DNA of 63,301 bases, filler included. It is 12 parts of 12 records of this genome, joined end to end, with 100 filler letters (N's around TTAATTAATTAA, not from the genome) between each part and the next. Parts side by side here need not be neighbours in the genome. Positions count along the whole stretch, not along the records: positions 1 to 4,364 come from SRR7504441_10317; 11 more parts are not named here. One strand, written 5' to 3'. A program made the translations under genes and the position numbers. Of the stretch, positions 1-53,490 are shown one piece after another (position 1 is the first letter of the stretch; each line of letters begins with the position of its first letter). The notes under the pieces were generated by a model that ran no database searches, had not been told where the DNA came from, and saw nothing but the letters and a program-made list of their open reading frames with translations.

Positions 1-435
1 AGGGCCCCCTTACTATCGAAGAACACAACACCGGCCGGGCGATCCGACCGGGCTGGCCGCGTCGGAGGAGTCCGAGAGACCTCCCAGGTCCGGGGAGAAA
101 TGTTGCGCTCCACTCGCCATCCCGATGAACTGAGATCACACCCAGTTGACCACACCTTGTTAACAACCCCATGACACATAATTATGCTACATGTACTGCT
201 TTAGTACATCAGTCGCAATGTTTTATTAATTTAAGGATCCATGCACGAGTAATGCACGAGTAGATTAATTTTCATCATGTACTGTCCCAGGAGCACACGT
301 CAGGTAACTGGTTGCTTGCAAAGTTCTCGGCAATTGCGGTAGCCGTCAAGCTCGGTGTGAATAGTCGAGAGGTAGAGCACTATGCTCTGGGCAACTGCGA
401 CACCAAAAAGCTTAACCTGTCTTCTAGGGCCCACC

Positions 436-3400
436 CTAGGATGACTGAACTTGCCTGTATGGCTTTGGTCGGTCTGAGCGCCTTCGCTTGTTCTGGGCCG
501 AGCCATCCGTGTATTTCACTACCTTGTAGAGTATCACAGAGAGCACTGGGTTGTCTGTCCATGATGCACACCTGCCAGCGCACACACCGTCAGCCGACTC
601 TAGCAGCCTGCCTCACCCAGATGGCAGCTGATAGACGCCCAAGTACTGCAAGTCCATAGGGAGAGCGCAGAGAGGTTTGGGAAGGTCCTTGGCGACTATC
701 ACCATCGTCCCTTCTCGACACCTGCTAGCGTACTGAGCGGTGCTCACGCCTGATCGTACGTACCATGCGGATATCCGCTGGCTCACTTCGCAGTTGGTGT
801 TGTGCGTGAAAACGAAATTGTTGACAAAGATGCAGTCAGCGCGCTCGTAGTTTGACCTTTGCTGAGGATCCAGAAAGTCGGCACTGACAAACTCGAGCTG
901 CCAGCCAGCACGGGTCACTTACTACACAAAAGCTCGACACTTGCCTTAGATTCCACCGGGATTATGCAATGGTACTGCTGAAAGAGGTGCTTGCTGACCG
1001 CTTCTTTGCTCCAGCTGTTAGCAAACTGCGAACAGTATTCCGAGCTTTCAACTCCAAGCACATCCGCTCTGGTGAGCAGCGCCACTCTAAGTGCCACCTG
1101 TTCAGCGGGTTGGTCGAGCCATGTAAGCACACACGCCTGGCCTAGCCCGGACCCAAGATCCATGAAAAGCTTCCCTGGTCCAAGCTCGATCCCGACAACG
1201 TGCTGGAGCAGACAAAGCAGCTGGCAGGTGCCGTGCAGAGTGAGCTCGCCATACTGGTTGTCATCCATCCCTGCGAGCCCACCTCGGCCCAGCCGGGCAC
1301 AACTCGGCACCAACTGCCGAGTTTTTAGGCATCTCTTCCCAGACAATCTCGGGTCGGAGCGACTCAAGTACCACAGCCCTGAGGAACTCGGCATTCGCAA
1401 AGCATGGCATCGGCTGCTTCAGTTTCTCTTTTATGCAGCTGTCACAGTGCCAGTCCGCTACACCTGCTCCGGCCAGTCAGCTCACTGGCGAAGCCGGGCG
1501 TGCCTCGAGCCAGAGCCTCAATCTCCTGAGTTGAAATCCCCATGCAGCTTCCATGGAACCCTACCAGCGCTCGGGCAACAACAGGGCAAGCTCCACACCT
1601 TTATTGCAGATGTCACAGAGTAACATGTCTTCCGGATCCTCCTGAAATTCACCAGTTTCAGTCCATCTCAGGTCTGAGCTGTGCCTTGGAGCCGCAGTAG
1701 AGGCACTGCTGGTCGCGGATCGATAAATCAGCAAGGAAGCGCTCATCCTCTTCCTCATACGGGTTGCAGCCTCGTCGCTCCTGTGATTCCATCCTCAGGC
1801 CAGAAGAGTATACCCAGTCGCCTGATAAGTTCCAGGCAAGCTTCCTGCCATCGAGCGCATCGCTTCCAGCAGCGGACTTGAGCGCATCTTGTGGCCTGTG
1901 TCACAGTCTTAGCAGCCGAATACACCAGCCGGCACTTGGCGGCGCATTCTGACAGTCAATGAGCCAGACCAGGCAGCCAATGTATCGATTGAAGAAATTG
2001 CGGTCGAACCGGATCGGCTGCTTAGTCTCGGCGTACCGCTCCTGCACGTCTCCCTGCATGCGTGCTCAGCAGGCTATGGCCGGCCTTGTGAACCCGGCAC
2101 ACTTCTCTGATTGCAAAGTCTGAGTCAGAGGCTGGGTTGCCCGTCATGTAGCTCCGGGCTACTTGGGCCGCGCTCAGCTGCACCTGGAGCAGCTGGTGCA
2201 GCTTGGAATACCTCTTGCTCGGCTCGCCCAGTCGGTACCGCAGGAATTTAGTCTCAAGCCATATCACTGGGCCGGCCGAGATCCTGTCCTCCTCATCATC
2301 CGAGCTTGTATCAGTCTGCATAGGCCCCCAGTACACACCCCAGGCTTGAACCTGGCTTCGCTCACGCCGCCAGGACTGGCCAATACCTCCGTTAGCCGGG
2401 TGTACAGCCTCTTGCGACCAGTCTGCAGCCAGCCAACAGCACACAGAGTGGCAAAGCTATTGATATGACTGCGCCCAAATGGTCAAATTTACCAACTATC
2501 ATTCGAAGCAGGGCCAGAGACCTGGCCGCTGCGATCTGGAGCTCGCCGCAATAGGCCCGGAGGAGCACAGCCGGACACTCGGAGAACTTTTCAAAGATCG
2601 TAAAATCTTCAAGCACTGCCCAGTCGCTCAGACTAGTTTTGCGTCCAATCAGCTCAGTTGTCCCCCGTTGTGTTTTAGCCTGTGAGCGGTACGCGTGCTG
2701 ACACACGCTCAAAACTGCCTGGGCTTTGAAATCAGCAAAGGCTTGGCTTGACACACTGCTAATAATAGGGAAACCTGCTGTGCTCTGTGCTCTGGGAGTT
2801 GCTGCACAATCGCCAGCTCATCGTTTGTATTCCTCGCAAACTCCACCCGGCGCTCGAATTCGGCCACTAGCCCTTCGGGCAGCTGGATCCAGTCACCAGC
2901 GAGCCGCTTGGCGGGCACCTCTGGCTCTGGTAGCCACTCTGCTTGCCAGCACTGCTGGCTCAACTGGGTCAGAAACTCGCGACAGCCTGCCAGCCGCCTG
3001 ACCCCTGTGCCCGGCCAGCGCGCACCATTGCCGCCCGGCCGCACATCGAGCACCAGTTCGGGCCGGCCGAGACTGGCAGCGCCGGTTGGGATCAGCCGGT
3101 ACAGGTACGGCAGTGTGCTCAGCTGCCAGGGCGCTCAGCCCAAGTGCGGGCAGGCTCACCTCAGTGCGGGCCGGTGACCAGCGTTTGGTCACTTTGTAGT
3201 CGAGCAGCTGTTGCAGCTGAACCACCCCCGGCGGCCGGAGCATCTGGGCCGGGTATCCGACTGTGCGAGGCGGCTGATACTTGGACACCCACTGTGCCGC
3301 CCTCACCACGGGTGCCTTGGAGCTGGACAGCCGATCCAGAGGCCCAGCCGGTGGCTCGTGGCTGTCCGTGTTCCCCAGGCTCGGTTCGCCCCCCGGTTTG

Positions 3401-4280
3401 CTTGACAGCCGCCGATCACCCACCTGCCACAAATCGCCCGGTCGGAGCAGCGGGGGCGCCTGCTCGGAACAGCTGGTGGCTAGCGCCGGGGAGTCGCGCT
3501 CGCAATCCCACCGGTGAAGCAGATCCCGTAGCGCCGACTCGCACCTGTCCCCGCCTTCGCCCCTGGCCAAGCGGCCTATGACCAGCCGATGGCCGTCTGC
3601 TCGAGGTGTTTGGAGAGGCTGTGTATCTGCTCCACGCTGTCCAGTGCCCAAGCCTGCCCTGGGCGGCCCGCGCGGAAGACCTGGTGCCCGATACAATCCC
3701 AGCCGTCCAGCTGCCGGATCAGCAGCGCAAATAGGTCTGGGAAACATTCCGTCTCGTATTGGGTAGTCAGGTCGGCAGGCCGCCGCCTGCCGGGCCAGGC
3801 CTCCTTGTACTGCTGCGCGAACTCCTCCAGAGCCCGCAGCCAATCATGCCCCTCGCTCCTGCTCGCCGATCGGTCGGGGACCCGACGCCGCTTGGCCGGT
3901 TTGGTGGGCGGAGGTGGCTCGGTCCGCCGGGCTATTCGGCCGATGGGCGGGGCGCGGCTCCGGCAGGAGGAGGGCTGGGAGGGCGGGTCTGGGCCGTCTG
4001 CGGGGATGGCATGCAGGATTGGCGCCACCAGCTGGGCCACCTCGGTCGGGGGCAGCTGGGCTGGCAGGTTGAATTCGCCGGCCAGCTGTCTGGCCCGCTC
4101 GGGCGACAAGTCGCCGTGCGAGAGCCGGGCGGAAACCTCGCGCACCACTACAGCCTCCTGGCACCATTCCGGAAGCACTGCCCGGTGTGTGACCGAGAGC
4201 TGGAGCACAGAGTCATTCCGGACCGACAGGTCGGGGTCGCTGTCCAGCTGGCCAGCTCCAGGACAGGCGCTCATGGCCAT
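436..4280 (-). CDS. Multi-exon DOT1-like (H3K79-type) SAM methyltransferase with upstream RFTS/RFD domain and PHD finger
   Basis: Manual splicing gives an RFTS-like region (VLEDFTIF...WGVYWG...IWLETKFLRYRLGEPSKRY) and a complete C4HC3 PHD (CLYC...LLCDICNKGFHGSC...WHCDSC). DOT1 motifs follow: QYGELT, FMDLGSGLGQV, GVE, ADFLD, IFVNNFVF, ASWTDNP. Introns traced include 898-944, 1098-1136, 1464-1503, 1561-1598, 1642-1684 and 1781-1821. Exons above about 2750 and the start codon are less certain. Confidence 0.75.
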
Positions 4281-4364
4281 GACGTTAGGAGGCCGTTGTA
4301 GCAAACGAGCTTTTGGCCCATCTACAGCGGCCGTAGATCTACAAAATAAAAAGATCGGAAGAGC

Positions 4365-4464
4365 NNNNNNNNNNNNNNNNNNNNNNNNNNNNNNNNNNNN
4401 NNNNNNNNTTAATTAATTAANNNNNNNNNNNNNNNNNNNNNNNNNNNNNNNNNNNNNNNNNNNN
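4365..4464. other. Artificial contig-joining linker (N44-TTAATTAATTAA-N44); the same linker recurs at about 9271, 13025, 16312, 22415, 28236, 33372, 37488, 41332, 47042 and 58824
   Basis: Identical 100-nt N-padded cassette with stop codons in all six frames, present 11 times; genes are truncated at it. Confidence 0.98.
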
Positions 4465-7400
4465 TTCTCGTTACTGGTAGAACGGGTCTCTGCGACGCAC
4501 ATACAGACAGTGCAAGGGTTTGAAGACTTGAAGAGCCTCGTGCTGCGGATCATGGCAGAGTCGACTGCTGGCCCAAACATGGATATATTCTGGCAGATGG
4601 CGCTGGACTCAGACCATCCGTTGGCCTCGAGGAGCTCAGACTTCCTCATTGATCATGCCTGCACTTCCGGCGTGCCGCTCCCCACCATTTATGACAAGCT
4701 CTGTTCAGAGCTTAGCCACCGATCAAAGACCCAGCTTGTGAGCATACTGACCGGCATTGTCGGTAACCTCCAAGAGCAGACACAGAAGTCCGAGCATGGT
4801 AAAGCGAGCCGCGGCGATCCTTTGGAGATCACTGTCAAGACAAAGCTGTGGCAAGTGACTAACGATCCAGATCCGGAGGTGCAGTGGAAAGAGGGATGGA
4901 AGCCCTATCCTACGCTGCGTGTCCCCACCCACACCAACGCCACAGTTCAGAGTTTCACAGACTATGTGCTTACTTCTCTTGGACTAGGCCCTTCGGAGAG
5001 CTTCAGCTCGACGATGCAGTTTCCAGATGGCAACAGTGGCATTAAGCCTTTGAAACCAGGCATGACTCTAGATCAAGCGGGCTTCTCGACGTCCAGCGCC
5101 GCTATCCACGTCGAAGTCTTTCCTCGCACGATCAAGCAAGAAGGGGACCCAGCGACAGACATGATCGTGGCACTCTCACAGGAGGTCAAGCTGTACGAAT
5201 CAATATTCTCGGTGCTAGCCGGGGTCTGTTCAGACGCGGCCTGGAGCCAAGACACAGAGGCTTGCCAACTTGTTGAGGCTGGGTGGGCGCTGCTCCAGAT
5301 AATGCCGAGTGCTGAGTGTTACCTGTGCATTGACTCGGTGGAGGACTGGAGCCACGTGCTCGACTACTCTAGGGATGGATGGAAGACCATCTACACCATG
5401 CAGCGCATTGCCAATAAGCTCTGCCCAACCGATGCTAGCGACACCACCACTTGGCGCCGGAGTTTCCTGCACAGTGGCGGCTTTGGTGTGATCTGCCAAA
5501 TGCTAAACACGCTTTCGATGGACGGCGACCAGCTGCTGCCCAAGCTCGGGATTCTACCATGCCTTCGGGTCTTGGCCCATTGCGTTGACGCGGCGTCTGA
5601 TTCCGGAGTGCTAAGTCGTCGGCTTAGTTCGGCCTCCTCCGAGATGGTTCTTGATACGATCACAGCCGATCACGAGAAGCTGATTCAAAGCCTCATCGGC
5701 TTTGTCCAGCAGGACGCTAGCTCCGCAGTCCAGGCTACCGCCATCACAGCCCTGCTGTCAGTCACTGTACATTCAGAGCAAGACGGTGGCTCCCAGGAGG
5801 TGCTGTTGAATCGCGTCTTGCAAGGCGCTGTGTGGCAAACCGTGCTAGTCTCTGAGCACCGCGCTGTTCGTCAGGCAACCATGCAGCTGCTGAACCACCA
5901 CTCGGCTGCAGGTGGGGTGGTCCAGCTTGCGATGGGAGCTGTTCGGGCTGCGGTCCGCAATGGAGCAGTTCACTTGTGCTCAGAGGCGTTGAACGTTCTT
6001 CACGAGGCCCTGACTGCCACAAGAGTCTCGGCAGAAGAGCTGGGAGAGCTTTTGAGCTGGGCGGTTGGTGTCGCGAATGAGGAGCAGACGCCACTCGATT
6101 CGGCCTGGTTCGAGCTCTTACAGGCGTTGGTTATCCAGTCACCAGCCTCGCCGCGGCAAAGCCATGTGGAAACGTCGATTGATCTCACTCGTTGCACTGG
6201 CTCCACCGAATTCCTGCAGCAAGCGCTGTCCCCCACCAGCAGCGCCGTGTCACCAGAGCAGGTTCTTGACTTGACCTGGTCTCAGCTGTACGAATGTGGC
6301 TTCCTGCTTTCGGCCCCTGATTCCGCAGCAGCTACCTCGACCTTGATGGCATGTTCGGCTCAGTCGCCCAGCTTGGCCCGAAAGCTGCTCCAAAAGCTGC
6401 AAGCATTGCATGAAGCCGCCATCGCCTCGATCGGTGAACCATCCTGGGAAATGGCAGACCCTTCTGCGACCGGGGGTGGTGCAAAGCCGCGCGGGCTGGT
6501 CAACCAGGCAAATACATGCTATCAGAATTCAGTCTTGCAGCAGCTATACATGAACCCTGCGCTGTGCAACGGACTGCTCGAGCTCCAGCTCCCCTCTGAA
6601 TCCCATCCTGATATTGCTAAGATGCTGTCTCAGCTTCAGACCACTCTGCGCGCTCTTCAGAGTCGAGGCGACCGGGCGTACGACCCAAAGGCATTTGTCC
6701 AGGCGTGTGTGGGTGTCTTCTCTTTCTCGGTGTGGGCGCAGCAAGATGCGTCAGACTTTTTGAAGCAGATCATGTCGCGGGTTGAGCTTGCGGTCGGTGA
6801 ATCCAACTCGCCATTCCACGCGCTGTGTTGCATGAAAACGCAGTGGGAGTGTACAGCTCGGGACAAGCACATGGCCCCTGTCTGCAAGCTGGAAGAGATG
6901 CCGGCCGGCTCACCTCTCGATGGGTCGCCGAGCCTGTTAGGCCTTCAGGATAACAAAACTGGCGAGGTGTTGCCAGACCTTGACACCGTGTTCAGCAACG
7001 CCGTCATGCACGACCATGCATCGATGGAATGGGAGCTCAGCGAGAAAGCGATGCTCGTAACAGAAAAGCGTCAGGTCATCACCTCTGCGCCGACCGTGCT
7101 GCTGCTGCAACTAGCTCGAGTGGGCTTCGGACCCAAGGTGAGAGACAAGGTGAGGTTTGGTCACACTCTCGACTTGACCCAATATTTATCATCAGCTCAG
7201 CGGAAGCGAGGAGAGCGAGCCGTGTACCAGCTCTCGGGGGTTGTGGTCCACGAAGGTGAGTCGGCTACGTATGGACACTATTTCAGCTACGCACGTGACC
7301 GTCAGACTGGGTTGTGGCATCAGCTAAACGACATGGCGGTGTGCACCGAGGATTTGAACGACGTGACCAATCTGGAACGGCGCTGCTGGGGGGGGAAGAT

Positions 7401-9229
7401 GACAACACGCGTAAACGACCCTTTTAGCGGGAGGGTGCTGTGGCAAGAAAACTCGTGTGGTACTGGCTACATGCTGTTTTACGACAGGGTCGGGCTGCGG
7501 TCATCGGCTACTGCATGTGCCAGTGCCAGTGAGTTGCAGCTGGTGACACAAGCCTGGCATTTGCGGCTCGTTTCTTCGCTAATGACTTCCTTGCAAGACG
7601 AAAAAGACAGCCCGACAAGGCGAGCGGTATTCGAGCTCGCTGCATTGTTATTCTTCAGACTGCTTCTCCATGTCGACGTGAACGAGGGAAGAATCAAGGG
7701 CGCCACTCAGGTTTGGTCCGAGCAGCTCGGCTTGCTCTTATCAAATGGAGACCTTGGCGAGACAAAGTGGAAAGATGAGATCCTGGGCGCCATTCTGGAC
7801 TGCCCTCGCATGTGGGGTAAGGAGTGCGTCTACAGGCTACTGTTGAGTCACGCCTCGTCTGGCCGCGAGCCGGCAGAAGCTGTGCTGTCGTTGCCTGAGT
7901 CGTTATTCGAGACGAGGCCGGAGCTTAAGATTCCACCCAGCGTCTCTGCTGCTCTCAAGCTCCTGGCTGGGCGCACTGAAGGGCAGCAGGCGGCCGCAGC
8001 ACTAGCAGAGTCGATCGGGCCAGGCAAACACCCGAATGTGATAGCGCCGATGCACGTTCTTCAAGCGCTGAGTAAGCACCCTCAATGGCAGCTCTTGATT
8101 GAGACTGTTCTGATCGGACTGCTCCCGAAGGAAACGCCCGGAAATTCCCTGTCACTCCACGGCGCTTCGTATCTTGCATCCGTAAGATCGAAGGACCACC
8201 CAGATCGGGTGGCGCTCTTGCTTGAACTTGCCTCCGCATTCCCTGACATAGTACAACCCTGGCTGAAAGATCGGTCTTCAGCTGGGAAGCTTGATTGGAT
8301 CCAAGTAGTCACCACAGAAAGCGCAGAGAGGCTCATAGCATTAGTGGCTGGAGGCGAGGCGCCGATCTTGCACCGAATCTACGAGGACATGAAGCGTCTG
8401 GGCGGCTCGCTCTATTCGCGCAAGTGGTGCGAACTGGCAATCAAGCAGGGCGGCTGCACGACCGCAGCAGCTGCGCTCGCGTGGATACGAGAGCACCAGG
8501 CGGTGAGGCTTTAGAGCGCGTGGGGTTGTGCGTGTGATTAACTGCGCAGGAGCTTTGTGCCTCCGCCACGCCTCAAGGGGCGTCCGCTGAGGACCCAGCT
8601 AGCGAGCCGGAGCTCGAAAGAGCGTTCTCACTCGACACCGCCCAGCGTGTGCGGCAACAGGTCTATCAGACTGCTCTCTAGTTAGTGCGTTGTGACCCAA
8701 ATTGCGCAGATGCTTGATGAGAAGCTCTTCGATCTTTCCAAGTCTGGCGACGCGAATCTGGAAGAGATAGAGAGTCTGATCAAAGAAGGTGCGAATCTAG
8801 AGTCGAAGCACAAGCAGGGCAACAGCCAAAGGTCTGGCTCTCGGCTATCCTGGCCCTGATAGTGTGTGCAGAACCTCGCTGCACATGGCTGTGCGCAACA
8901 ACCAGCCCAAGACGGTCCGGCTCCTGCTCAGCTCAGGGGCAGCTCCGTCTCCTTCTGCAGATACGTCGGACGGCTCCTCATATGGCTGGACCCCTATGCA
9001 CAACGCGGTCAACTACCATGGCACCTCGGGTGACGGGGCGCAAGGGATGCGCCGGGGCGGGGATGATATGACCGAGATAGTCTATTTATTGATCGAAGCC
9101 CGGGCGGATTTGTCTGTCAAAATCTCCGGAACTACAACACGAGGCTACTGGATGGGGTTCACACCGTTGGATGCGGCAAACTCTCACAACAAATTCGACC
9201 TAGCTGATATTATCAAGATTTATATGTAA
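4465..9229 (+). CDS. Ubiquitin-specific protease (USP9/24/34-like, peptidase C19) with C-terminal UBA-like and ankyrin repeats; 5' partial
   Basis: Cys box GLVNQANTCYQNSVLQQLY, QQDASDF, His box YQLSGVVVHEG...GHYFSY and WHQLND. Introns 8503-8549, 8661-8709 and 8832-8871 join it in frame to ankyrin repeats (TSLHMAV, WTPMHNAV, FTPLDAA). Confidence 0.85.
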
Positions 9230-12730: not shown

Positions 12731-13451
12731 TGCCAGCTGCAGTGGCTGTCAGCCCACCGCCTCGCCCACGCGCAGCCCCAGTGTTATCAAGTAATAAATC
12801 TTTTCATTATTAGTATTTAATTCAAGTATTGGATTTATGCTTGAACATGAGTGCAGCTACAGCCGTACTGCACAAATGCAATACTGTACCTGTAGCTTCG
12901 TACTTTATACATCTGGAAAAGTCCGTTTCTCGTTTCTCGCAGATTACGATGGGGGCGGGCCTCGCGGAAACAATAAACTAATGGCGCGCTATGTCAGCGG
13001 CTCGGCCTGCTCCAGCTTGCCCTGNNNNNNNNNNNNNNNNNNNNNNNNNNNNNNNNNNNNNNNNNNNNTTAATTAATTAANNNNNNNNNNNNNNNNNNNN
13101 NNNNNNNNNNNNNNNNNNNNNNNNGCCGGTGTCAGGCAGGCGCTGTTGAGTACTCGAACACAGCTGCTATTACGAAGAACGACATCGAGAATAGCTTGTC
13201 GGAAGTCTAGAAGTCGCAAGGTACATGAAGCGGCACACATCTAACCTCGGAAGAGTCCGATTGCTCACAGTTTGGAACAATCAAGTGTGATCAGCACACA
13301 ATTGCTGCCTAATTGTTGCCTGCCTGGTGTGTCATACTGAGCCAATTACCAGCTGCCTGGTGTGTTGTGGTACGAGTTCGTAGCAGAGAATCGCGCGAAT
13401 AAAAAAGTAACAGACCGCTGGCCTCGACTGCCGCCATCATCAGGGGAAGAA

Positions 13452-15266
13452 ATGGTCCGACTGGCGGTGTGCTTCCTCTTGCTGGCGGGCGGGCTGGCCT
13501 CGGACGAGCTGCGCGCCAAGCTTCAGGCCACGCTCGACCGGCACTCCGAGTTCTGGAACGGCTCGTTCTCGCTCGGCGTCCACAACGGCTCGTTCGAGCT
13601 GTCGGTGGCGGCGGGGCTCGATCGGCACGCCGACCCGAGCACCAAGCTGAGCCCGGAGACCCGGATACCGATGGGCTCGACCACCAAGCTGTACACGGCG
13701 GTGTCGGTGCTGCAGCTGGCCCAGCAAGGCGTGCTCAGGCTGGACGACAAGGTAGCTCCTCTGGTGGACCGGTACCTGGCCCACCCGATGCCCTGCAGCC
13801 AGACCCCGGCGATCTGCGCGAGCAAGTGCGTCCCACTGGCGCATTGCTACACCGAGCCCAGCCTGATCTGCAAGACGGTCACCCAGGAGCGCAAGGCGGA
13901 GTGCTCTTACTGCCTCCGGTACCTGCACTGCTTCGGCAACCAGAGCAACGTGCCAAGCAAAGTGAGCCTGAGGCAGCTGTGGGACAACCAGAGTCAGATC
14001 GAGCAGGTCACCTTCCGGCAGCTGCTGAGCATGTCAAGTGGAGTCAAGGACTACTATTACGATACTGACAACTGGTTGTACAACTCTGTGATGGGCTCGA
14101 CCCGCGACATAGAGCCACTCGAATTCCTCGCGCACATGGACCACAGCTTCGAGTTCGCCCCGGGCGCCACAACTGTGGTGCCCGCGGGCAAGCCAGGGGC
14201 CGGCCAGACGGTGCTAAGAGGCTCGTACTCTACAAACGGATTCAGTCTGGTTGGGCTCGGCTTATGCGGGCTGCTAAACCTCACAGACTGGGCCGACCTG
14301 TCGCAGCGCCGGCTGGCTTGGGGCCCAGCCTTGCCGGCCGACGACGCCACCCTGTTCCCCACCCGGGGGACTTGTCTGGGGCAGGAGCGGCTCAGCCGGC
14401 AATATACAAGCTTAGGCGGCCAGTTTGAAGAGATATCAAACCACTCCTGCCTCAACTCCTGGACCGGGGGCAACATCGCCGCCCGGCCGCTCGACGTGGC
14501 CAGGTTTCTGTACACGGTCTTCGGGACCGAGACCATTCTGAGTGAGAGTGAGCGAGCTGAAATGTTCAAACTGCATCCGATGACCGACGGGTTCGCAGCG
14601 TACGGAATGGCCTATGGACTCGGGTTGGAGGCCGAATGGAGCGCGGCTGGCGCAAGCCCGACTCATCAGTGCCAGAAATACACGATGCTCGGGCATGGAG
14701 GGCTCGACTACGGCTCGGGGGCGCCTGTGAACGGATACCTTGTCGAGTTCGGTTTGGGATTCTCTCTGGCAATGAACTCGGGGATTTATTACGGCTCGTC
14801 TGTAGCCGGAATGGCCTGTGACAGGAACTTCAACCAGCTCCCGGCTGCGTACAATTTTGCGTTGAATGACGTGCTGAATGTGCTCGCTGAGCATGTTGGT
14901 GTGTCTGCCAGCTGCCCAGTTTCGAGCTACGACGTACCCAACGCTTCATCCTGTGTGGACGCCGCCTCATTCGGCACCATGGACGGGCACGATGAAACCT
15001 GCGCCAGATTTGTAGAGTCTGTCCTGGTGAGCACCCACGGACAGGTCTCGGCCGCCACGCTGTGCGACCACTGGCTCTCGCTTGTCACTCTCTCCGAGCT
15101 TCAGCAGACCTTAGCCCATGAAGCCAAGCCCGTCAGCTACGTGCCACCGGCCGGGGTCGATCCGAATACCACTGTGGCTGTTGAGCTCTGCAGGGGTACT
15201 TGCATGGCTGCTGGCACCGGACCCTGTTGGCAAAGGGCGGCGCATAAGCCGTGGTGTGGCAAGTAG
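13452..15266 (+). CDS. Secreted serine beta-lactamase-like / penicillin-binding-protein-fold hydrolase, intronless
   Basis: Signal peptide MVRLAVCFLLLAGGLA, SxxK (GSTTK), LLSMSSG, YxN-like (YSTNGF) and GHGG, with a Cys-rich insert and tail. Confidence 0.85.
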   Translation: MVRLAVCFLLLAGGLASDELRAKLQATLDRHSEFWNGSFSLGVHNGSFELSVAAGLDRHADPSTKLSPETRIPMGSTTKLYTAVSVLQLAQQGVLRLDDKVAPLVDRYLAHPMPCSQTPAICASKCVPLAHCYTEPSLICKTVTQERKAECSYCLRYLHCFGNQSNVPSKVSLRQLWDNQSQIEQVTFRQLLSMSSGVKDYYYDTDNWLYNSVMGSTRDIEPLEFLAHMDHSFEFAPGATTVVPAGKPGAGQTVLRGSYSTNGFSLVGLGLCGLLNLTDWADLSQRRLAWGPALPADDATLFPTRGTCLGQERLSRQYTSLGGQFEEISNHSCLNSWTGGNIAARPLDVARFLYTVFGTETILSESERAEMFKLHPMTDGFAAYGMAYGLGLEAEWSAAGASPTHQCQKYTMLGHGGLDYGSGAPVNGYLVEFGLGFSLAMNSGIYYGSSVAGMACDRNFNQLPAAYNFALNDVLNVLAEHVGVSASCPVSSYDVPNASSCVDAASFGTMDGHDETCARFVESVLVSTHGQVSAATLCDHWLSLVTLSELQQTLAHEAKPVSYVPPAGVDPNTTVAVELCRGTCMAAGTGPCWQRAAHKPWCGK

Positions 15267-20660: not shown

Positions 20661-20740
20661 CGCGTGCGGCGCCCTCCTGCCGGGGAGTCGCAATTTCGCC
20701 GGAAAATGACTAAAAATAGCCTGTTTCGGTGGAGATAGCG

Positions 20741-21835
20741 ATGCTCGGGTTCCACACGCTGCTGCTCCGGCCGGGGCACTCCCGGTGCAGCGCGCGGGGC
20801 CAGTCGCCGAGCTGCCCGGGCCAGTGCGCCTGGTCCGGCTGCCTGGCCCGCCAACGCCCGGCCACCCCGTCCTGGGCCGAGATCCGGTCGGCGCCCAAGC
20901 TCCGGCGATCCAGCCTGGCGCTGGTGCTCGGCCAGCTCAGCGGGGCCGACCAGTTCATGCCGGAGCTTCTGGCCAAGCTATCCGACTCCAGCGGGCAGAT
21001 CCGGCAGGCCGCGCTCGAGTTGCTCGCCCGGCTGCCCGCCGAGGGGCTGGCGGGGTGCGAGCTGTTCGAGCCCCTCGTGCGCTGCCTGGCCGACCCGGAT
21101 CGTTTCGTCCGGCGGGCCGGGCTGCAGCTGTGCGGGCGGCTCCCGGACTGGGCCCGGGCCCGGCTCGGGCCTCAGATCGCCGGGCGGCTGGCAGACGAGG
21201 ACCCGATGGCACGGCAGCAGGCCGGTCGGCTTCTGGTCCGGCTTCCCGGGCTGTCGGGGCTGGGCCAGGAGCTGGGGGGTCTGGTCAGGCACCCGGACTG
21301 GAGCACGCGACGGGCGGCGCTGGCCGGGCTGGGGCTGCTGCCTACGGAGGAGTTGCTGGACTGGATCCCTGTAGTCGAGGGAGCCTTGAGTGACTCTGAG
21401 GCCATAGTGCGCCGGGCGGCCGTGGAAGCGCTCGGGATGCTGCCGGGGCCGGAGCTCGGGCGAGTGGCCGGCCGGCTGGCGGGGATGCTAGGGGAGAGTG
21501 AGCCGTATGTGCTCGAGGCGGTTGTTCGGGTGCTTGGTGAGCTATCGGAGGAGCAGCTGCAGCAGGCGGTGCCGGGGCTAGAGAAGTTGCCGGAAGTGCA
21601 CGCTGGGGTGGCGGACAGCGCGAGTGAGTCGTCTGAGGAGCCGGACGGTCTTCAGCTGGAGAGTTATAAGAGCATTGAGCAGCTAGTGCTCGTGTATAGG
21701 GTGGCCATCAAGTGGCTAAGTGCAGTCCGGATGCCTAGCGTGCAGTTGTCGAGCTCGCACGGGTATACTGCGGTCGAGCTTGGCTTCAGCGATGCTAGTA
21801 GCGATGAGGCGGGTGTTGGCCTTCCTAATAAATGA
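20741..21835 (+). CDS. HEAT-repeat (PBS-lyase-like) protein
   Basis: Repeats of L..l.D.d..VRraA.eaLg.l (LSDSSGQIRQAALELL, LADPDRFVRRAGLQL, LSDSEAIVRRAAVEALG). Confidence 0.75.
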   Translation: MLGFHTLLLRPGHSRCSARGQSPSCPGQCAWSGCLARQRPATPSWAEIRSAPKLRRSSLALVLGQLSGADQFMPELLAKLSDSSGQIRQAALELLARLPAEGLAGCELFEPLVRCLADPDRFVRRAGLQLCGRLPDWARARLGPQIAGRLADEDPMARQQAGRLLVRLPGLSGLGQELGGLVRHPDWSTRRAALAGLGLLPTEELLDWIPVVEGALSDSEAIVRRAAVEALGMLPGPELGRVAGRLAGMLGESEPYVLEAVVRVLGELSEEQLQQAVPGLEKLPEVHAGVADSASESSEEPDGLQLESYKSIEQLVLVYRVAIKWLSAVRMPSVQLSSSHGYTAVELGFSDASSDEAGVGLPNK

Positions 21836-33538: not shown

Positions 33539-35233
33539 TCAAGGGATCACGGACGGCAAGCCCGAGAGCGTCGGCGGGTTCCAACTAAATTTCAGGCTGT
33601 CGATGAGGAGGCAGCGCAGCCTGTGCTGCTCGGAGACCACCGTGTCCTCCTCCAGCCGGAGCATCAGCGCGCGTTCAGCCTCGGAGGTCACTGGCCAGTT
33701 CTCTCGAGGGCGCCCGGTGGCAATAAAGTTGAGCCAGTGGCTCCTCATCCGCTGTCCTAGTGCCTGCTCCGTAGCCGACAGGCCATCAGTGCCCCAGAAG
33801 ACGAACGAATTTGAGCCATGGAAGGCGCCAAGCCAGCGCTCGAGCTTGGCGGTGACCAGGCGAGTGATCCACCGGGGCACCCAGCTATAATTGAGCCCGA
33901 ACGCCGTGACCGGGTCATGCAAGACAGCGTCAAACAAGTACCGGTACCGCCGATCTGGCTGGGCCCGCGCCACGCGCAAGGTAGGGCAGCCGAAGTAAGC
34001 GTCGGTGGTGAGCGCGTAGAATGCCTTGGCTGCGCTGCGGTTAAAGTGCTGGGGCGAGTAGAGTCCCAGAAGGGCGAGCCGCTCTGCCAGCGAGGCTGCA
34101 GGGAATAGCCGCCGCAGGGCCAGCTCCATCGCGGTTTGGGAGATTGCCGGGAGCCCTGCAAGGTTAGGGAGCAGCTCGGGGAGTGTGAATGCAAGGAACA
34201 TCGAAATGTCGTCAGAGTTGTGCCCGAGCAGCATGGGCAGCGGCTGGGCGAGTCCCTTGCTGAAGAATTCTTTAAGCGAGCTGTTCACTGGGAGCTCGAA
34301 CCCATCAGCCACAGGCACCTGCAGCGCCCGCATGCTCTGGTTGTAGACAGAGGTCTGCAGATTGAGCAACCGCACCGCCGGCAGCGCGCGAAGGCAGCGC
34401 ATCCGACCCGGTCCCCGAGCACAGCCTAGCTGGTCTGCAAACTGCTCACCGGCGGCAAAAGCCTCGGTCAAAGACATTGAAAAGTCGTTGCCGGACATCG
34501 CGATCGACTGAGCGAACAGCCCGTGAGATCTGGGGAGCGCCGTGTGCGCGTAAACGGCCATGGCGCCCGCACTCTCGCCCATGATTGTGACCCGGCTTGG
34601 ATCTCCGCCGAATCGTGCAGCGTTGTTTTGGACCCACTGCATTGCGGCCCTCTGATCCTGAATGGCCCAGTTCCCCGCGGTGCCGCTCTCATTGAGCATC
34701 TCGGGCAGCGCCATGGCGCCGAACACCCCCACCCGATAATTGAACGCGATGTACACCACCCCGTCGGCGCAGATGGCAGACGCGTTGTTCGAGTCGCCGG
34801 TGCCCGCCAGGTACGACCCGCCGTAGATGTAGAGCAGCACCGGGTTGCGGGCGGTCAGGTTTGGGGATTGGACGTCCACGGTCAGGCAGTCCTCGCTCAT
34901 GTACCCGGCCGGATCGAGCGCCAGCTCCTCCAGCCGCTCCACCCAGCCAGCCCGGATCCCGAACGCGCCCGAGTCCGGCTGCTGCATGCACACCGGATGC
35001 TCGTTCCGCGTGCCGTCCCGCACCCCGGCCCACGGGGCAGCGGGTGAAGGCGGGCCGAACCGGCGGGCGGCGGCGAAGGGGATACCGTAGAATCCGACGC
35101 AGGCCCCATCGCCCGCCGCCCCGCGCACCAGTCCACCAGGCTCGGTGCGCACCACCGGGTTCTGGGGGGCGTCGCCGCCCCTGCCGCCTGCCGCCCAGAG
35201 CAGCAGCAGAAGCAGACCACCCCGCGGGCTCAT
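33539..35233 (-). CDS. Secreted type-B carboxylesterase/lipase, intronless
   Basis: Signal peptide, FYGIPFA, SEDCL, YIYGGSY, NYRVGVFG, FGGDPSRVTIMGESAG (catalytic Ser) and GAFHG. Confidence 0.93.
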   Translation of the reverse strand: MSPRGGLLLLLLWAAGGRGGDAPQNPVVRTEPGGLVRGAAGDGACVGFYGIPFAAARRFGPPSPAAPWAGVRDGTRNEHPVCMQQPDSGAFGIRAGWVERLEELALDPAGYMSEDCLTVDVQSPNLTARNPVLLYIYGGSYLAGTGDSNNASAICADGVVYIAFNYRVGVFGAMALPEMLNESGTAGNWAIQDQRAAMQWVQNNAARFGGDPSRVTIMGESAGAMAVYAHTALPRSHGLFAQSIAMSGNDFSMSLTEAFAAGEQFADQLGCARGPGRMRCLRALPAVRLLNLQTSVYNQSMRALQVPVADGFELPVNSSLKEFFSKGLAQPLPMLLGHNSDDISMFLAFTLPELLPNLAGLPAISQTAMELALRRLFPAASLAERLALLGLYSPQHFNRSAAKAFYALTTDAYFGCPTLRVARAQPDRRYRYLFDAVLHDPVTAFGLNYSWVPRWITRLVTAKLERWLGAFHGSNSFVFWGTDGLSATEQALGQRMRSHWLNFIATGRPRENWPVTSEAERALMLRLEEDTVVSEQHRLRCLLIDSLKFSWNPPTLSGLPSVIP

Positions 35234-35346
35234 GGCTCTCCAGCCGACCGTTGCTCATCAAGCGGCACAGCGCTACCGTAGGAGCACATGCGCAGCTGGT
35301 GGCGCAGGGCCCTGCGGCGGCGGGGGAGCAGCACGCCCAGGCCCTG

Positions 35347-47355: not shown

Positions 47356-49010
47356 TCAGACACCGATACGCGCAAGCTCGTGGCAAAGCTCTCGATCCCA
47401 ATGCTGTCCGAGCTCAAATTTTCCACCTGCAGCCGGCTGAAGAATCGGATTCTGGTCGCTCTGGTTGCTGAACGCTGGCCAGATAAATCCATCTGCTCGC
47501 GGCTCCCCATCTGCAGCTAGGCTGGTCCACAGCTGTCCGATCTGGCGCGCAAAGGAGGCTTCGGTTGGCGACCACTGGCATGAGGCGGGACTGATGGGGG
47601 GACCGAATACAAAGGTCGGCATTCCAAAGACGTATGAGATCTCTACAGTATGTGTCACACCAAACGTTGCCGGGTCGAAGTACAGATCGACGCAACCCGG
47701 GTCGGGCCAGCTGTGATTGAAGTGGTAAAAGTAGACAGGGCTGTCGTGAGCAGCTGCTGCCTCAGCCACCCAACGCATCGGGCAGACAAAGTCTAGTGCT
47801 GTTGAGAGAGCCGAAAACTGGCGTCTGTTGGCCGCAGCTTCCAAACTAGTGTTGGCGGTATGCATAGCAGGAAATAGGCGCAGCAGCGCAGGCAAAGTCT
47901 CGGGCGTGGGTCTCTTGCCGTTGGTGTACAGTGTTGCATTGATCTCTTGCACATAGCTGCTGGCGTCGAGGTGCTCGCTCCATGGAAACTGCTGGATAAA
48001 CAGAGCACTGTCGTTGGTGTTTGCTCCTGCGATCATGGGCACTCGATGAAACTGCCCACTCCGCATCATCTGCAACGGCTCGGCCGGTATGGTAAACCCG
48101 TCCACTGTAAATGCGGCCTGTCTGTCTTTGGTGGCTGCGTTATGCGGCACATTGCCCTGAACATCCAAGATCCTCTGCACACTCAGCTTTCCTAGGCAGC
48201 CTCGGCTGGCGTTCCCAGCGCACCCAAGCTGGGCCGATAGCTGCTCAGTCCGTTGGACGCTCCAACCACGGGTCCATGTGTGCGTGGTCCCTGATTGCAT
48301 GACAGCCGCACTGAACAACCGAGCCGAATCGGGAGAGACCAGGTGCTTGTGCACACTGCTGCCGCCAGCTGACTGCCCAAACAGCGCCACGCGCCGCGGG
48401 TCTCCACCGAAACGTTCGATGTGCGCTTGCACCCAGCGGAGCGCCGACTGCTGATCTAAGAGCCCTGCCACAAGCGCACGCATCACCCCCCCGCATGCCC
48501 GCACCGCGCACCCCAATTTCCAGTGGTCGAGCCTTCGTCCTCCGCAAAGCTCAGGAAGCCAAGCAAGCCGATCCGATAGTTGATGGACACCACCACCACC
48601 CCATGCTCGGCTGCCAGGGCCGATCCGTTGTAGCTCGCCTCACCGCCGAACGCCAGTCCGCCGCCGTAGATCCACACGAGCACCGGCCGGGGCGGTCCCG
48701 CGGGTGCCGCCGGCCGCCACAGCGACAGGCTCAGGCAGGCCTCGGCCGTGCGGTTGTCCGGGATCTGCCCGGGCCACTGCGGGCACGAGTCCCCCCGGCG
48801 GACCGCCTGATACGCGGGGCCGTCCGACGGCGCGTACGGTTGGCTGCGGTCGATGGGCGGCCGCCACCGCTGGGCGTGCGCATACTCGAGCCCGAGGAAC
48901 TCGTCTGCCGCGGTGAGTGCGTGGCCGGCGATTGGCCCGAGCGAGGTGTTGACCACCACGCTGGCGCCGCAGACAGCTAGCAGTAGCGACCCGAGGACGA
49001 TCGAGCCCAT
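47356..49010 (-). CDS. Secreted type-B carboxylesterase/lipase, one intron
   Basis: Signal peptide, EACL, VWIYGGG, NYRIGLLGF, GNWG|LLDQ, FGGDPRRVALFGQSAG and GVTHTVEI. Confidence 0.92.
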
Positions 49011-49172
49011 CAAGTGTTGAGAGATCGTTACGGGCGTCTGCGGCAGTGCCGCTCCAGTGGCAGCCAACCGGCCTGATGGCGCGCAGAGGGGCGCTTCGGC
49101 CGCCGGACCCGACCGAGGTGGCTGTACCTGGGCCGGCATGCTGCTGTAGCCGGCGGGCAGGCGAACAGCCCG

Positions 49173-52100
49173 ATGCGGCGCACCCACCGGGAGGCCTCCA
49201 ACCCGCACGCTGCCATCCTTGAGTGCGCCCGCCCGCCCCGCCCGCCTTTCACCCCCACACCCAGGGTTCCGCGCGCCTGCGGCCGGTACGTGGCCCCTCA
49301 GTCCAATCGCCCGGCCTGGGCTACGCGTGGCTCGGCCCAGTCGCGGCAAGCCCCGCACAGCCAGCCCGGCCCGCTGCGCTCCTGGGATGCGGGCCAGCCC
49401 CAGCCGGCCACCCGAGCCCCAGCGGCGAGCCAGCTGCGCCAGGGACCCGTGAGTGACGGCGAGGCCCGCCAGATCGCACCCCGGAAGGACCATGTACACC
49501 GGCTGAACCAAGGGGAGCTCCGGATAGACGCGGGCGGCCCAGACGCACCGACGGCCGACCTGTCGGAGGAATCGGTCAAGAGCTACCTGCGGAGCCTGAT
49601 GCGGCTGGACCACAGTGCGCCCAAGACCCACTCGGACCGGCCGGGGGAGCCGGGGGAGCTGCGGGAGCTGGGGGGGCTGGGGGGGCTGGAGGGGCTGGAG
49701 GGGCAGACCAGGCCCACGTGGCAGCCGAGTGCTGACTGGTTTGAGGCAATAGTTGGCAAGGGTTTCCGCGACCGCCGGCCTGCACCAGCCCAACAGCCGA
49801 TAGAGCCGACGTCGATCCCTTTGGATCTACCCAGCAGCTCGGTGGACGATCAGACCATCAGCAGGTGGCTCGTGCGGCGGCCCTAGTGAGCTGGCAGACA
49901 GGCGGCGCGAGCCCCAAGACCGGCCGCAGAGCTACACTCAGCCGGCAGCCAGCGCCGACGATGCGGCCCGGGCTTGGTTTGCCGGTGGTGGGGCGGGCGG
50001 CTGGTTTAGCGGCCCGGTCATGGAGCGTAGCCGGCCGGAGTTGCAGGCACTGGACCGGCTCGTGAGCCAACTGAGCCCGGCCGCCGGGGCCGGCTGGATG
50101 CACAGCTCCCAGTGCACGCCCGACGCCCGAATCCAGCTGTGCGCCGGCGGGAGGGTGCGGCTGAGCTTGGGGCAGGCGGCGGCTCGTGGACCGGCCGGAC
50201 GAGCTGGAGCTGAGCAGCGTCAGTCCTGAGGCGGGCACCATGTACGTGCTCGAGCTGCTCCGACAGCTTCCTGGCGGGCTTGTCCCACTGGAGACGGCCG
50301 TTGAGCTGGTGCGGGACCGGTCGGTCCATCAAGCGGTGCTCGCGAGTCGACTGAGCCCGGAGCGGCTGTCGTGTTGGAATCGGTTGGTCCAGCACTGGCG
50401 CGAGCTTGTCGCCAGCCGTTCGGTGCCGGGAGCGCGCCAGCTTGCGACAGTGCTGTTTGGGCTGGTGTGCCCAGAGGTGCACGCTCGGGCGTGCCGGGAT
50501 CGACTGGGCGGGGCAGTGTGCAGATCTGAAGCTGATTGAGGTGATTGAGGAAATAATTCAGCTGCAACCGGCGGCGACTGAGCCAGTCTCGTCTGCCGAG
50601 GTGCCCCCGCCGTTGCCGGGGCTCAGATCATGTGGCAGGCGGTGCGGCTGATTGGGCTGCTCCCAGTCTCTCTGCGGCATCGCCTGGTGCCTGATAGCAC
50701 AGTCGTGCGCCTGGCCAAGCTGATTCCTCTCGACAAATTGCTAGAAGCCTCTGGCCAGCTGCCGGAGGCGCATGCTAACGCGTTTGTCACGGTACGACAG
50801 GCTTTAGGCGCCATGCTGGAGCAGGCTTGGGGCCAGGCATGCGTGGAGGCGCAGGCAGCTTGTGAGACGGCTAAGCTTAGCGAGCCAGAACTGCAGGACA
50901 TTGTAGCCAGAGCTACTGGCGAGGTGGGCCTGCCCGGCAGTCGAGCTACTGTGGTCAAGGTTGGTGCAGGCCACTATCGATGCAGCCAGCATCGAGGCTC
51001 GCATGCGTGAGAAGCTCACGCAACTCTTTGTGCTACTGGACGCGAACGGTGATGGTATGCTCACCAACGACGAATTTGAGCGCGCGTGCGGCCGGCCAAA
51101 TCTGCTATTGTTACTTGGACAGGTCTGTAACTGGCCACATAAAACTGGCTTGAGCCCTAATAGGCCGTTACAACTGAGATCGCGGCCAGGTGCCTGTCGA
51201 CTCGCAGGCGAGGATGAGTCGAGCTGCGTTCATGAACTTTTTCCTCAAGCAAGTACCTGAGCAGGTGGGTGGCAAGCAGGCGCTTCAACTCGTTTCTCTC
51301 CTGTGCCAGGAGCAGGCAGCAATTTCTGATCACTCGATTCGTCCGGTTGACAGCCAAACCTTCCAACGCGAAGTCATGCGTACGTTCACGCTGATCGATC
51401 AGAACAACGATTGCCACATAAGCCCTGAAGAGCTCAGCGAAGTATGTGGCCCGACCGCCCCGCTGCTGTTAGAGGCGCTGGGGAATAATACAGTCCACAA
51501 CACAGCGGGCATCATCACGATGCAGCAGTGGACCAAATTCTGGGACTCTGTGGCACGAGAGCAGGGCGATGTGCTAGCACAGTACCAACTTGGGCTCGTG
51601 AGAGACCGGACAGTCAAAGCCACGGTGACCACCGAGCCTGTGGACGCCAAGGTCGTCAAACCAAGTCGATTGCCTCAGAAAATTGAGGACTTAGCTCTGT
51701 AAGCAGCCGCTTTGGCGAGGCGACTGACGGGCTTGACTGTCGACAGGCGGATCTTTGACGCAATAGCGGCCGACAATTCATATTCGGTTGTCGACAATCC
51801 GAAGATCGACAAACAACACTTATTCATGAGCCAAGTCAACAGCGACGACTGTGAGACTTTGCTCAGAATGTGGAAACAGACGGACCTTGACGGGGATGGC
51901 TTGATTGACAAAGACGAGTGGCTGCACATCTGCCAGCATCTCGGTCAACAGAAGCTGGAGCCGCGACTGGCTAAGATCTGGCACAACTTACAGCGGTGCG
52001 GTATAGGCTGCTGTCAGGACGGCGTAGCTGTGGTGAGAAGACAGCCGCGCCCAATTATGCAAGACGAGACAGGCGCAAGTGTGGATATTGACAGGCTGGC

Positions 52101-53490
52101 AGTGACTGTGTATGAGCTTCTCGATACAGACAGCAGTGGAGAGCTGACCAGGCAAGACATGCTAGACCAGTCTCTACAAATCGACGACGAGGTGCACGGG
52201 TTGGCTCAGGCAATGGACTTTGGCCCAGATGATAGTTTGCACCTGGAAGATTGGATCCTGTGCTGTCGAGAAGCCTCCGAGGAGAATCCAGTCGTTTTCA
52301 GCACGCTGCTGCGGCAAGTGCGCGAAAAGCTAATTCACGCCAGAATGCTAAGCACAGGCAAGCGAGCTACACCGCACCAACAGCACCCAGAGATCACAAG
52401 GCTGGCCCGCAAACTGTTCTGTTTGCTAGACCACGATGATTCGGGGGTGTTGGCTATGTGGGAAGTGATGACCTCTGTTGAGTCGGATGCTGAGGCTACC
52501 AGCATGATGCGCGAGATCGATGCTAGCTCCGATGCAAGTCTTAGCCTTGACGAATGGATGAAGCATTGGCTAGTCAAAGCTGCCAGTGATCAGTCGCGCA
52601 CTGAAATCCAGCTCCAGAAAATGTGTGCGCACCTGCAACAGATGTCTGGAAGCAAGCATCACGCAGCGAGACCTCATAATCCAAGGCTGGACGAACTTGC
52701 ATCATCTGTGTTCAGCATGCTGGATAAGGACAACTCAGGGAAACTTGTGCTCTCTGAAGTGATGGAGTCTCATATGAACGCTGGCTCACTGAGTGAGAGA
52801 GACTGGGCGCTGCAAGTGGTGAAGGACATAGATACTGGGATGGATGGCTCTGTGTCGCTCGATGAGTGGAGACAGTACTGGACCTCGGCTAAGCTTCCCG
52901 ATGACGCTATTGCTGAGGACATACTCACCAAAATCAAGCTGCAGCTGACCAGACAAGGCCTCGCACACACGTCCCCTGTGCAGAGCAGGCGAAGGATGCG
53001 CCCATCCAATCCGAGACTTGATAAGCTAGCCGATGATTTATTTGACCTGCTTGATACTGACGAGAATCAAATCCTGCAACTTGCTAATGTAGCAGAGTTG
53101 ACCCAGCGTGTCAAAGATGCAGGAAACGATACTACCGACGCCATTCGACGACTCAGCTCCATTCGAACTGCTAAGGAGGGGACCATCGACCATAAAGAGT
53201 GGAAGGATTACTGGGCTTCTGAGGAAGCCGGCGACGATGGGCAGGTTGAAATCAAATTGAAGCAGATGAGAATCGCAGTGGAGAAATCCTATGGACTACC
53301 ACAAGAGAGCCTGCGAGAGTCTACGATCGCAGAATTCGAAAAATTGGAACACTTTGCTCGAAATTCGGGTACAATGAGCCCAAAATCGCCAAAGAAGTCA
53401 CCAACTTCAATCAGATCACCCAAGGCGTGGGACGGAGTCGGTCGAAAATTGAGACACAGCCACACACTCCGCGATAGTGGGCTCTTCTGA
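49173..53490 (+). CDS. Large multi-EF-hand repeat protein, possibly with a degenerate RhoGAP-like region; multi-exon
   Basis: Many EF loops (DANGDGML, DQNNDCHI, DLDGDGLI, DTDSSGEL, DHDDSGVL, DKDNSGKL, DTDENQIL) in about 100-aa units. The intron at about 51699-51747 joins two of the ORFs; 5' linkage is less certain. Confidence 0.65.
49640..49703 (+). repeat. 9-bp-period G-rich tandem repeat within coding sequence
   Basis: About 7 units of GGGGAGCCG/GGGGGGCTG/GAGGGGCTG encoding GEP-GEL-REL-GGL-GGL-EGL. Confidence 0.7.

Follow-up and report, generated by a model that had tools for sequence, protein, structure and literature searches.

Can a DOT1-type histone methyltransferase carry its own targeting parts? 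To our knowledge, DOT1 enzymes are the only histone lysine methyltransferases without a SET domain, and those of yeast and animals lack RFTS and PHD domains. Well-studied DOT1 enzymes are steered from outside, by ubiquitin on H2B and by adaptor proteins. The question is raised by a minus-strand gene at the beginning of a 63,301-nucleotide stretch of DNA (the window, in whose coordinates all positions are given). An earlier reading of the letters by themselves (the sequence-only reading) had proposed that this gene joins three parts in one frame: an RFTS-like region, resembling the targeting module of DNMT1 that Pfam lists as DNMT1-RFD; a PHD finger; and a DOT1-like catalytic domain. We estimate the probability at roughly 60% that the locus is one expressed nuclear gene of a marine eukaryote, with a product made up of an unassigned N-terminal region, a divergent RFD-like region, a PHD finger, and a C-terminal DOT1-type lysine methyltransferase dependent on S-adenosylmethionine (SAM), and that this product would act as a chromatin reader and writer in one. 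The fusion architecture in one frame is supported by Pfam matches, by RNA-backed splicing, and by P0001, a protein from a second organism.

RNA contigs support much of the spliced frame

With 12 RNA-supported and 4 inferred introns removed, the coding model starts at an ATG (4278-4280) and stays free of internal stops until it reaches the TAG at 436-438. This open frame of 1049 codons, with its four inferred introns, bears out the proposal that the RFTS-like, PHD, and DOT1-like parts are read together. Upstream of the ATG, the frame stays open to about 4351, at the end of the contig, and an ATG at 3241-3243 offers an alternative. The gene probably starts at about 3243 or 4280, in either case 5' of the range drawn by the sequence-only reading. 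The final 13 bases of the contig (4352-4364), which follow an A-rich run, are AGATCGGAAGAGC, which we take to be the start of an Illumina adapter. These last bases would then be an artifact, and the 5' end of the gene may be truncated.

Six public sequencing runs, all of them marine or seawater metatranscriptomes and five recorded as RNA, matched parts of positions 300-4300. We aligned 11 RNA contigs, taken from four runs in four studies (X2, X3, X4, and X6), to positions 200-4360; 10 of the 11 were at least 99% alike with the window. Ten splice joints were seen directly, and loose ends of the contigs, matched by eye, placed two further introns. The libraries of three of the four runs had been poly(A) or oligo(dT) selected. 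Spliced transcripts of the gene turn up in four independent marine metatranscriptome studies, so it comes from a living organism that recurs geographically. The RNA support spans only 496-2826 of the model. None of the contigs from the four runs fell within 2827-4360, which is neutral with regard to the 5' exons; this 1.4-kb 5' stretch lacking RNA support is nevertheless a weak point of the model.

The introns are 35 to 77 nucleotides long (median, 40) and have a GC content of 0.60, compared with 0.61 for the exons. All 12 RNA-backed introns end in CAG. Five introns have GC donors, the number given by the sequence-only reading. One of these (898-944) was reported by the alignment tool, one (1098-1136) follows from loose ends, and three (1464-1503, 1642-1684, and 1781-1821) result from shifting the joint by +1 base to GC-AG. 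The shift lies inside the tool's stated ambiguity, and it is also the sole placement that keeps the frame. The total number of introns had been underestimated: RNA joints and inferred introns together give 14 between 436 and 2775, where about 11 had been proposed.

The tiny introns suggested an origin from an "outlier chromosome" of the Mamiellales. Introns of such chromosomes are AT-rich by definition, with less than 43% GC according to the accessible part of PMC3879977. The introns described here, with 60% GC like the exons, do not fit this origin, and the idea was dropped.

The RNA contigs differ from the window by single bases at 1917, 1928, and 2642, probably as a result of strain variation. 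The difference at 2642, in exon 2522-2697, would change a codon read as Arg to His. Those at 1917 and 1928 lie within candidate intron 1896-1935, in the single contig that keeps this intron.

A divergent DOT1-type domain at the C terminus

Pfam scores for the window gene were taken on single open reading frame (ORF) or exon pieces and compared with the gathering scores of the families, which are 22 bits for DNMT1-RFD (PF12047), 23 bits for DOT1 (PF08123), and 24 bits for PHD (PF00628). Three of 12 ORF pieces scored above a cutoff, and the other nine had no match or chance-level matches only. Three of nine exon pieces had a match, one of them below the cutoff. DOT1 was the only methyltransferase family matched. 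Piece 918-1418 scored 25.6 bits for DOT1, and pieces 616-918 and 766-897 each reached 26.6 bits. Exon piece 766-897 covers profile positions 104-145; exon piece 1137-1268, which covers positions 21-55, scored 21.5 bits alone and is the match below the cutoff.

Profiles of the first and second halves of the domain (A4 and A5) were searched against the PDB. A4 gave 26 matches at an E value of ≤10. The top 18 and one more were DOT1L, yeast Dot1, or H3K79-specific chains (E values of 0.016 to 0.87), and the remaining seven were phosphoethanolamine methyltransferases and profilins (E values of 0.29 to 0.92). With A5, all 17 matches were DOT1 enzymes. The top 18 matches of A4 and the 17 of A5 had E values of 0.016 to 0.33. 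By these matches the methyltransferase is of the DOT1 type, as the sequence-only reading had assumed, and it occupies nearly the range, about 500-1270, in which that reading had seen a DOT1-like domain.

The alignments with DOT1 chains in the PDB keep DLGSG.GQ, G-V/I-E, DFL, and F-V/I-NNF.F. The acidic residue that follows motif I lies in LGVE, which is aligned with GVE of DOT1L, and the DFL block reads ADFLD. Judged by four features, namely, motif I, the post-I acidic residue, DFL, and FVNNF, the domain qualifies as a member of the DOT1 family. Its catalytic core is apparently intact, with matches that leave the end of the lysine channel uncovered. The last two DOT1 exons (pieces 619-720 and 439-570) had no Pfam match at an E value of ≤10 and no PDB match, a gap that weighs against assigning the complete domain. 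An S-W-T motif is visible at 520-570 and may correspond to one in DOT1L.

The domain might act on another histone residue or on a nonhistone protein, or it might be a catalytically dead binding module. We consider this unlikely but worth taking seriously. The domain has diverged strongly: when 108 residues from the first half of the DOT1 region were searched exhaustively with phmmer against 1.84 billion representatives, no canonical DOT1 appeared at an E value of ≤0.001. The lack of matches to the last two exons fits the same explanation. DOT1 subfamilies of brown algae have diversified and acquired new domain associations, as described in the accessible part of PMC13076208, and histone marks correspond poorly with their writers across eukaryotes in the accessible part of 10.1101/2021.11.30.470311. 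However, motif I, the post-I acidic residue, DFL, and FVNNF are all intact and aligned with DOT1L, and the only families in the PDB that rank ahead of chance-level matches are H3K79-specific enzymes. In addition, a PHD finger sits in the same chain, which favors a histone context.

A PHD finger and a relative with the same domain order

The spliced model contains a complete PHD finger, split across four exons, almost exactly at the place proposed from the sequence (about 1435-1705). All eight zinc ligands are present in the pattern C-x2-C-x11-C-x2-C-x4-H-x2-C-x17-C-x2-C. Taken as separate ORF pieces, the four exons had no Pfam PHD match. The finger aligns ligand for ligand (8/8) with that of P0001, for which the Pfam score is 33.2 bits. 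In the PDB, the P0001 finger is matched best by UHRF1 (E value of 3.4e-6) and ATXR5 (E value of 1.7e-5). The PHD fingers of UHRF1 and ATXR5 read the unmodified N terminus of H3.

P0001 was the best of the eight proteins that the phmmer search returned at an E value of ≤0.001. Five of the eight (P0002 and P0004 to P0007) are repeat proteins, which we judged spurious from their sequences and left out of the Pfam scan. P0001, 514 residues long, is encoded by one uninterrupted ORF on a 3542-base contig. Pfam recognizes DNMT1-RFD (24.9 bits), the PHD finger, and the start of DOT1 in it; the last, at 16.3 bits, remains under the cutoff because the ORF stops there. Colinearity between the spliced model and P0001 starts ahead of the RFD-like region, continues over the linker and PHD finger, and reaches into the DOT1 domain, with 160 of 478 residues identical (E value of 2e-80, two-file BLAST). 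The domain order proposed by the sequence-only reading is thus conserved, as judged by alignment, in the single ORF of a second organism.

The two other proteins, P0003 and P0008, are short fragments of relatives, with cluster mates P0009 and P0010. P0003 and P0009 are identical to the second half of the DOT1 domain at 55 of 129 residues. They also have a 28-residue insertion a few residues ahead of the site of window intron 898-944, as if a longer intron, at a position conserved exactly or nearly so, had been retained there.

Word-indexed protein searches, made with the RFD ORF piece against longer proteins and with P0001 against proteins of near and longer lengths, found only P0001. No relative was detected in the Joint Genome Institute (JGI) metagenome contigs or the viral contigs that were scanned, and protein-atlas lookups gave no usable match. 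The family looks rare: billions of database proteins yielded one ortholog and four fragments.

Resemblance of the upstream region to RFD

The region ahead of the PHD finger matches Pfam DNMT1-RFD with 24.4 bits on exon 2094-2351 and 23.0 bits on the minus-strand ORF piece 2025-2456. The exon matches profile positions 82-119, and P0001 matches positions 82-138. An RFTS-like region had been placed at about 2100-2620 by the sequence-only reading; the RFD search does pass the cutoff there, although by a small margin and along just some 40% of the profile.

We searched the PDB with an RFD-only profile from which the PHD finger was left out (A3). Ten of the 11 matches at an E value of ≤10 were RFTS domains of the DNMT1 type, all at one equivalent place, and they included both RFD copies of a 1507-residue DNMT1-type chain. 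In alignments A1 and A3, MAFFT had put several short exon pieces in the wrong place, and the A3 profile may have been weakened by one such row. When P0001 was used as the query, the best 60 of 79 matches (E value of ≤1) consisted of 58 PHD fingers and 2 DNMT1 chains, the latter at residues 207-260 with E values of 0.091 and 0.23. A low-confidence AlphaFold2 model of P0001, made with three window exon pieces as the alignment, places strands at 121-216 and then long helices at 224-332, which we take to be the order of the RFTS lobes.

Alternatively, the region might not be a true homolog of the DNMT1 RFTS/RFD. It could be lineage specific, with a strand-plus-helix motif that arose by chance, in which case the protein would be a PHD-DOT1 enzyme with an unassigned N terminus. 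We think this improbable, despite several results that count in its favor and against the RFD assignment. The Pfam match is narrow, exceeding the cutoff by 1 to 3 bits and confined to profile positions 82-138 of 144, so that 38 to 58 residues are matched. Exon piece 2524-2697, where the N-terminal half of the RFD was expected, had no Pfam match even at an E value of ≤10. The match is therefore partial, not that of a full-length RFD including its N-terminal half. The statistics of the PDB matches are likewise weak: the DNMT1 matches of A3 had E values of 0.13 to 0.62, their eleventh companion was PrgZ, and the range over both searches is 0.09 to 0.62. The AlphaFold2 model lacks a confident fold, with a mean predicted local distance difference test (pLDDT) score of 37 and a predicted template modeling (pTM) score of 0.24. 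The protein-atlas lookups, without a usable match, fit this explanation as well. Mammalian RFTS domains bind zinc at a C-x2-C near the start of the domain; no C-x2-C is seen at the start of the region studied here.

Chance resemblance nonetheless has to contend with two sequences that are only 33% identical (160/478) and both pass a curated cutoff at the same profile positions. It would also leave to coincidence the finding that, with the PHD finger removed, 10 of 11 PDB matches fall on DNMT1-type RFTS domains at one equivalent place, and the low-confidence model would have to reproduce the order of the RFTS lobes by accident. The specificity of the PDB matches is striking and their statistics are weak. 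We therefore call the region RFD-like, and its kinship with the DNMT1 domain appears to be established in part.

The joint between the RFD-like region and the PHD finger

The sequence-only reading had looked to RNA junctions to place all three parts on one transcript. RNA contigs do tile over the boundary between the RFD-like region and the PHD finger, but one of them retains intron 1896-1935, which connects the two frames. This contig, record 10 of X4, is unbroken from 1869 to 2054 though spliced at 2054/2094, and no listed RNA joint removes 1896-1935. With the intron retained, the RFD frame stops at a TGA (1901-1903), and a PHD-DOT1 frame could begin at an ATG (1885-1887). These observations speak against a fused product. 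They would instead fit two same-strand genes or cistrons, the first encoding an RFD-like protein up to the TGA and the second a PHD-DOT1 protein from the ATG shortly downstream, with the processed RNA of record 10 keeping the boundary intact and the fused frame coming from an inferred intron.

Several features of 1896-1935 are those of an intron. At 40 nucleotides it has the median length, it opens with the same six bases (GTGCCG) as RNA-backed intron 1271-1310, and its terminal CAG is shared by all 12 RNA-backed introns. Its removal yields the exact phase demanded by RNA-backed intron 1781-1821. Record 2 of X2 starts exactly at 1895, the first exon base after the acceptor, with two letters there that misfit the genome. 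Both mismatches of the retaining contig to the window (1917 and 1928) lie inside the candidate intron. The strongest argument for splicing is P0001, in which a single ORF reads through the equivalent boundary with both flanks conserved. Given these features, and with only 13 bases from stop to start, an extreme value for separate eukaryotic genes, we regard two genes as very unlikely.

A candidate reader-writer of chromatin

Each chromatin part of the protein encoded by the spliced frame is of a known kind; what is new is their arrangement. The catalytic domain is of the same family as DOT1L, yeast Dot1, and trypanosome DOT1A-B (PF08123; H3K79/K76), with the cutoff passed on two pieces and the motifs aligned. 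It differs from DOT1L and Dot1 in being very divergent (PDB E values of 0.016 to 0.33) and in its C-terminal position, behind the reader domains; we know of no PHD finger or RFD in the same chain as the catalytic core of DOT1L or Dot1. DOT1L and Dot1 are targeted via H2B ubiquitin and partners such as AF10. The RFTS/RFD of DNMT1 and plant MET1 (PF12047) is matched above the cutoff by both the window gene and P0001 within profile positions 82-138. However, only part of that domain is detectable in the window gene, and the enzyme attached to it is of the protein lysine methyltransferase type, whereas DNMT1 and MET1 are cytosine-5 DNA methyltransferases. The PHD finger, a full C4HC3 finger in the window gene and closest to those of UHRF1 and ATXR5 in P0001, belongs in those two proteins to a ubiquitin ligase and a SET-domain H3K27 methyltransferase, respectively, unlike the DOT1-type enzyme here.

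On the basis of these families, the DOT1 domain would methylate a lysine of the nucleosome core, the equivalent of H3K79, and the enzyme's own reader parts may bring it to particular chromatin or switch it on there. The PHD finger, most similar to those of UHRF1 and ATXR5, would hold the N-terminal tail of H3. The RFD-like region might, as in DNMT1, bind a ubiquitin- or methyl-marked histone or gate the catalytic domain. The outcome would be a self-contained reader-writer, in contrast to canonical DOT1, which depends on H2B ubiquitin and separate partners. As the sequence-only reading suggested, an H3K79-like mark could be linked in this way to replication or maintenance marks. A more specific version would make the protein a maintenance writer for a histone-core mark on the plan of DNMT1: the RFD-like region would read replication-coupled H3 ubiquitin or a PAF15-like factor, the PHD finger would hold the unmodified tail of new H3, and the DOT1 domain would restore H3K79-type methylation behind the fork. 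We consider this version a long shot. If true, a histone mark would be inherited through a loop with a targeting logic so far tied to DNA methylation.

A DOT1 enzyme with its own PHD finger and a region like the DNMT1-type targeting module would be a natural experiment on how core-histone marks are wired to tail marks, and perhaps to replication, and it would be evidence of the RFD module finding a second use beyond DNA methylation. For now, the worth of the finding is limited by its known parts and by a function argued from analogy. Domain shuffling is common among chromatin proteins of protists.

Other proteins combine some of these parts. Brown-algal DOT1.2 to DOT1.5 are likewise diversified DOT1 enzymes with gained domain associations outside animals and fungi, according to the accessible part of PMC13076208. 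The words RFD and PHD are absent from the main text of that paper, and an overlap with the architecture described here is possible in its figures or supplements. One of nine group D PHD proteins of Brassica rapa carries a DNMT1-RFD domain, as given in the accessible part of PMC6814106, which indicates that RFD occurs together with PHD outside DNMT1. Unlike the window gene, the Brassica protein has no DOT1 domain in that part of the table. DOT1 homologs in Mimiviridae are mentioned in the accessible part of 10.1101/2021.11.30.470311. Our literature search found no publication combining "Dot1" with "RFD domain." Among the listed publications that mention RFTS and DOT1, none describes a fusion, as judged by title and the start of the abstract.

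Coordinates of the fusion gene, its domains and introns, and the spacers of the window
Feature	Position	Strand	Description
Whole coding model	436-4280	-	17 exons, 16 introns, 1049 codons; 5' end uncertain
TAG stop codon	436-438	-	Closes the frame
RFD-like region	1952-2631	-	Exons 2522-2697, 2387-2468, 2094-2351, and 1936-2053; colinear with RFD part of P0001; Pfam DNMT1-RFD matches
Core of Pfam DNMT1-RFD match	2157-2270	-	Profile positions 82-119; contains IWLETKFLRYRLGEPSKRY
PHD finger, C4HC3	1435-1705	-	Split across four exons; pattern from spliced model
DOT1-type methyltransferase domain	520-1268	-	Exons 1137-1270, 945-1097, 764-897, 617-721, and 436-571; Pfam and PDB profile searches
SAM-binding motif I FMDLGSGLGQ	1137-1166	-	Aligned by profile with FVDLGSGVGQ of DOT1L
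DFL	868-882	-	Ahead of CIFVNNFVF; aligned with DFL...FVNNFAF of DOT1L
DOT1 hallmark CIFVNNFVF	808-834	-	Aligned by profile with DOT1L; Pfam, 26.6 bits
Intron	3545-3582	-	38 nucleotides; GT-AG; inferred from frame only, no RNA
Intron	3123-3159	-	37 nucleotides; GT-AG; inferred from frame only, no RNA
Intron	2698-2774	-	77 nucleotides; GT-AG; RNA joint in X2
Intron	2469-2521	-	53 nucleotides; GT-AG; RNA joint in X3
Intron	2352-2386	-	35 nucleotides; GT-AG; RNA joint in X3
Intron	2054-2093	-	40 nucleotides; GT-AG; 11 loose letters of X4 record 10 equal 2095-2105
Intron	1896-1935	-	40 nucleotides; GT-AG; inferred; connects RFD frame with PHD frame
Intron	1781-1821	-	41 nucleotides; GC-AG; RNA joint in X2, placed +1
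Intron	1642-1684	-	43 nucleotides; GC-AG; RNA joint in X2, placed +1
Intron	1561-1598	-	38 nucleotides; GT-AG (TAG end); inferred from frame and gap-free P0001 PHD alignment; within PHD finger
Intron	1464-1503	-	40 nucleotides; GC-AG; RNA joint in X4, placed +1
Intron	1271-1310	-	40 nucleotides; GT-AG; RNA joint in X4
Intron	1098-1136	-	39 nucleotides; GC-AG; in frame; 15 loose letters of X3 record 6 equal 1082-1096
Intron	898-944	-	47 nucleotides; GC-AG; RNA joint in X2 (tool: CT..GC, + strand)
Intron	722-763	-	42 nucleotides; GT-AG; RNA joints in X2 and X6
Intron	572-616	-	45 nucleotides; GT-AG; RNA joint in X6
Spacer sites	4365-4464, 9271, 13025, 16312, 22415, 28236, 33372, 37488, 41332, 47042, 58824		

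Contig context and other genes in the window

The window is a chain of about 12 separate contigs of 3 to 12 kb each, and gene order across the spacers is meaningless. The 11 spacers, each 100 bases long and of the form N44-TTAATTAATTAA-N44, carry stop codons in every one of the six frames. The contig of the fusion gene is 1-4364. An Rfam scan of the window found nothing.

An intronless ORF of 1349 residues on the plus strand (4465-8511) encodes a ubiquitin carboxyl-terminal hydrolase (UCH, 131.7 bits) and contrasts with the 16-intron gene. It was ruled out as a divergent neighbor of the fusion gene, as it lies on another contig beyond the spacer. Type B carboxylesterase ORFs are found on the minus strand at 33542-35254, 47359-48639, and 48486-49826 (280, 203.7, and 113.1 bits, respectively). 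The last two overlap in different frames and may be one gene with a frameshift or an intron. On the plus strand, the window further contains a beta-lactamase-family protein (13341-15263), a HEAT-repeat protein whose HEAT matches are to cohesin or condensin (20720-21832), an EF-hand protein (51703-53487), and a kinesin motor (56772-58691; 325.8 bits). These four ORFs are ordinary eukaryotic genes in long open frames.

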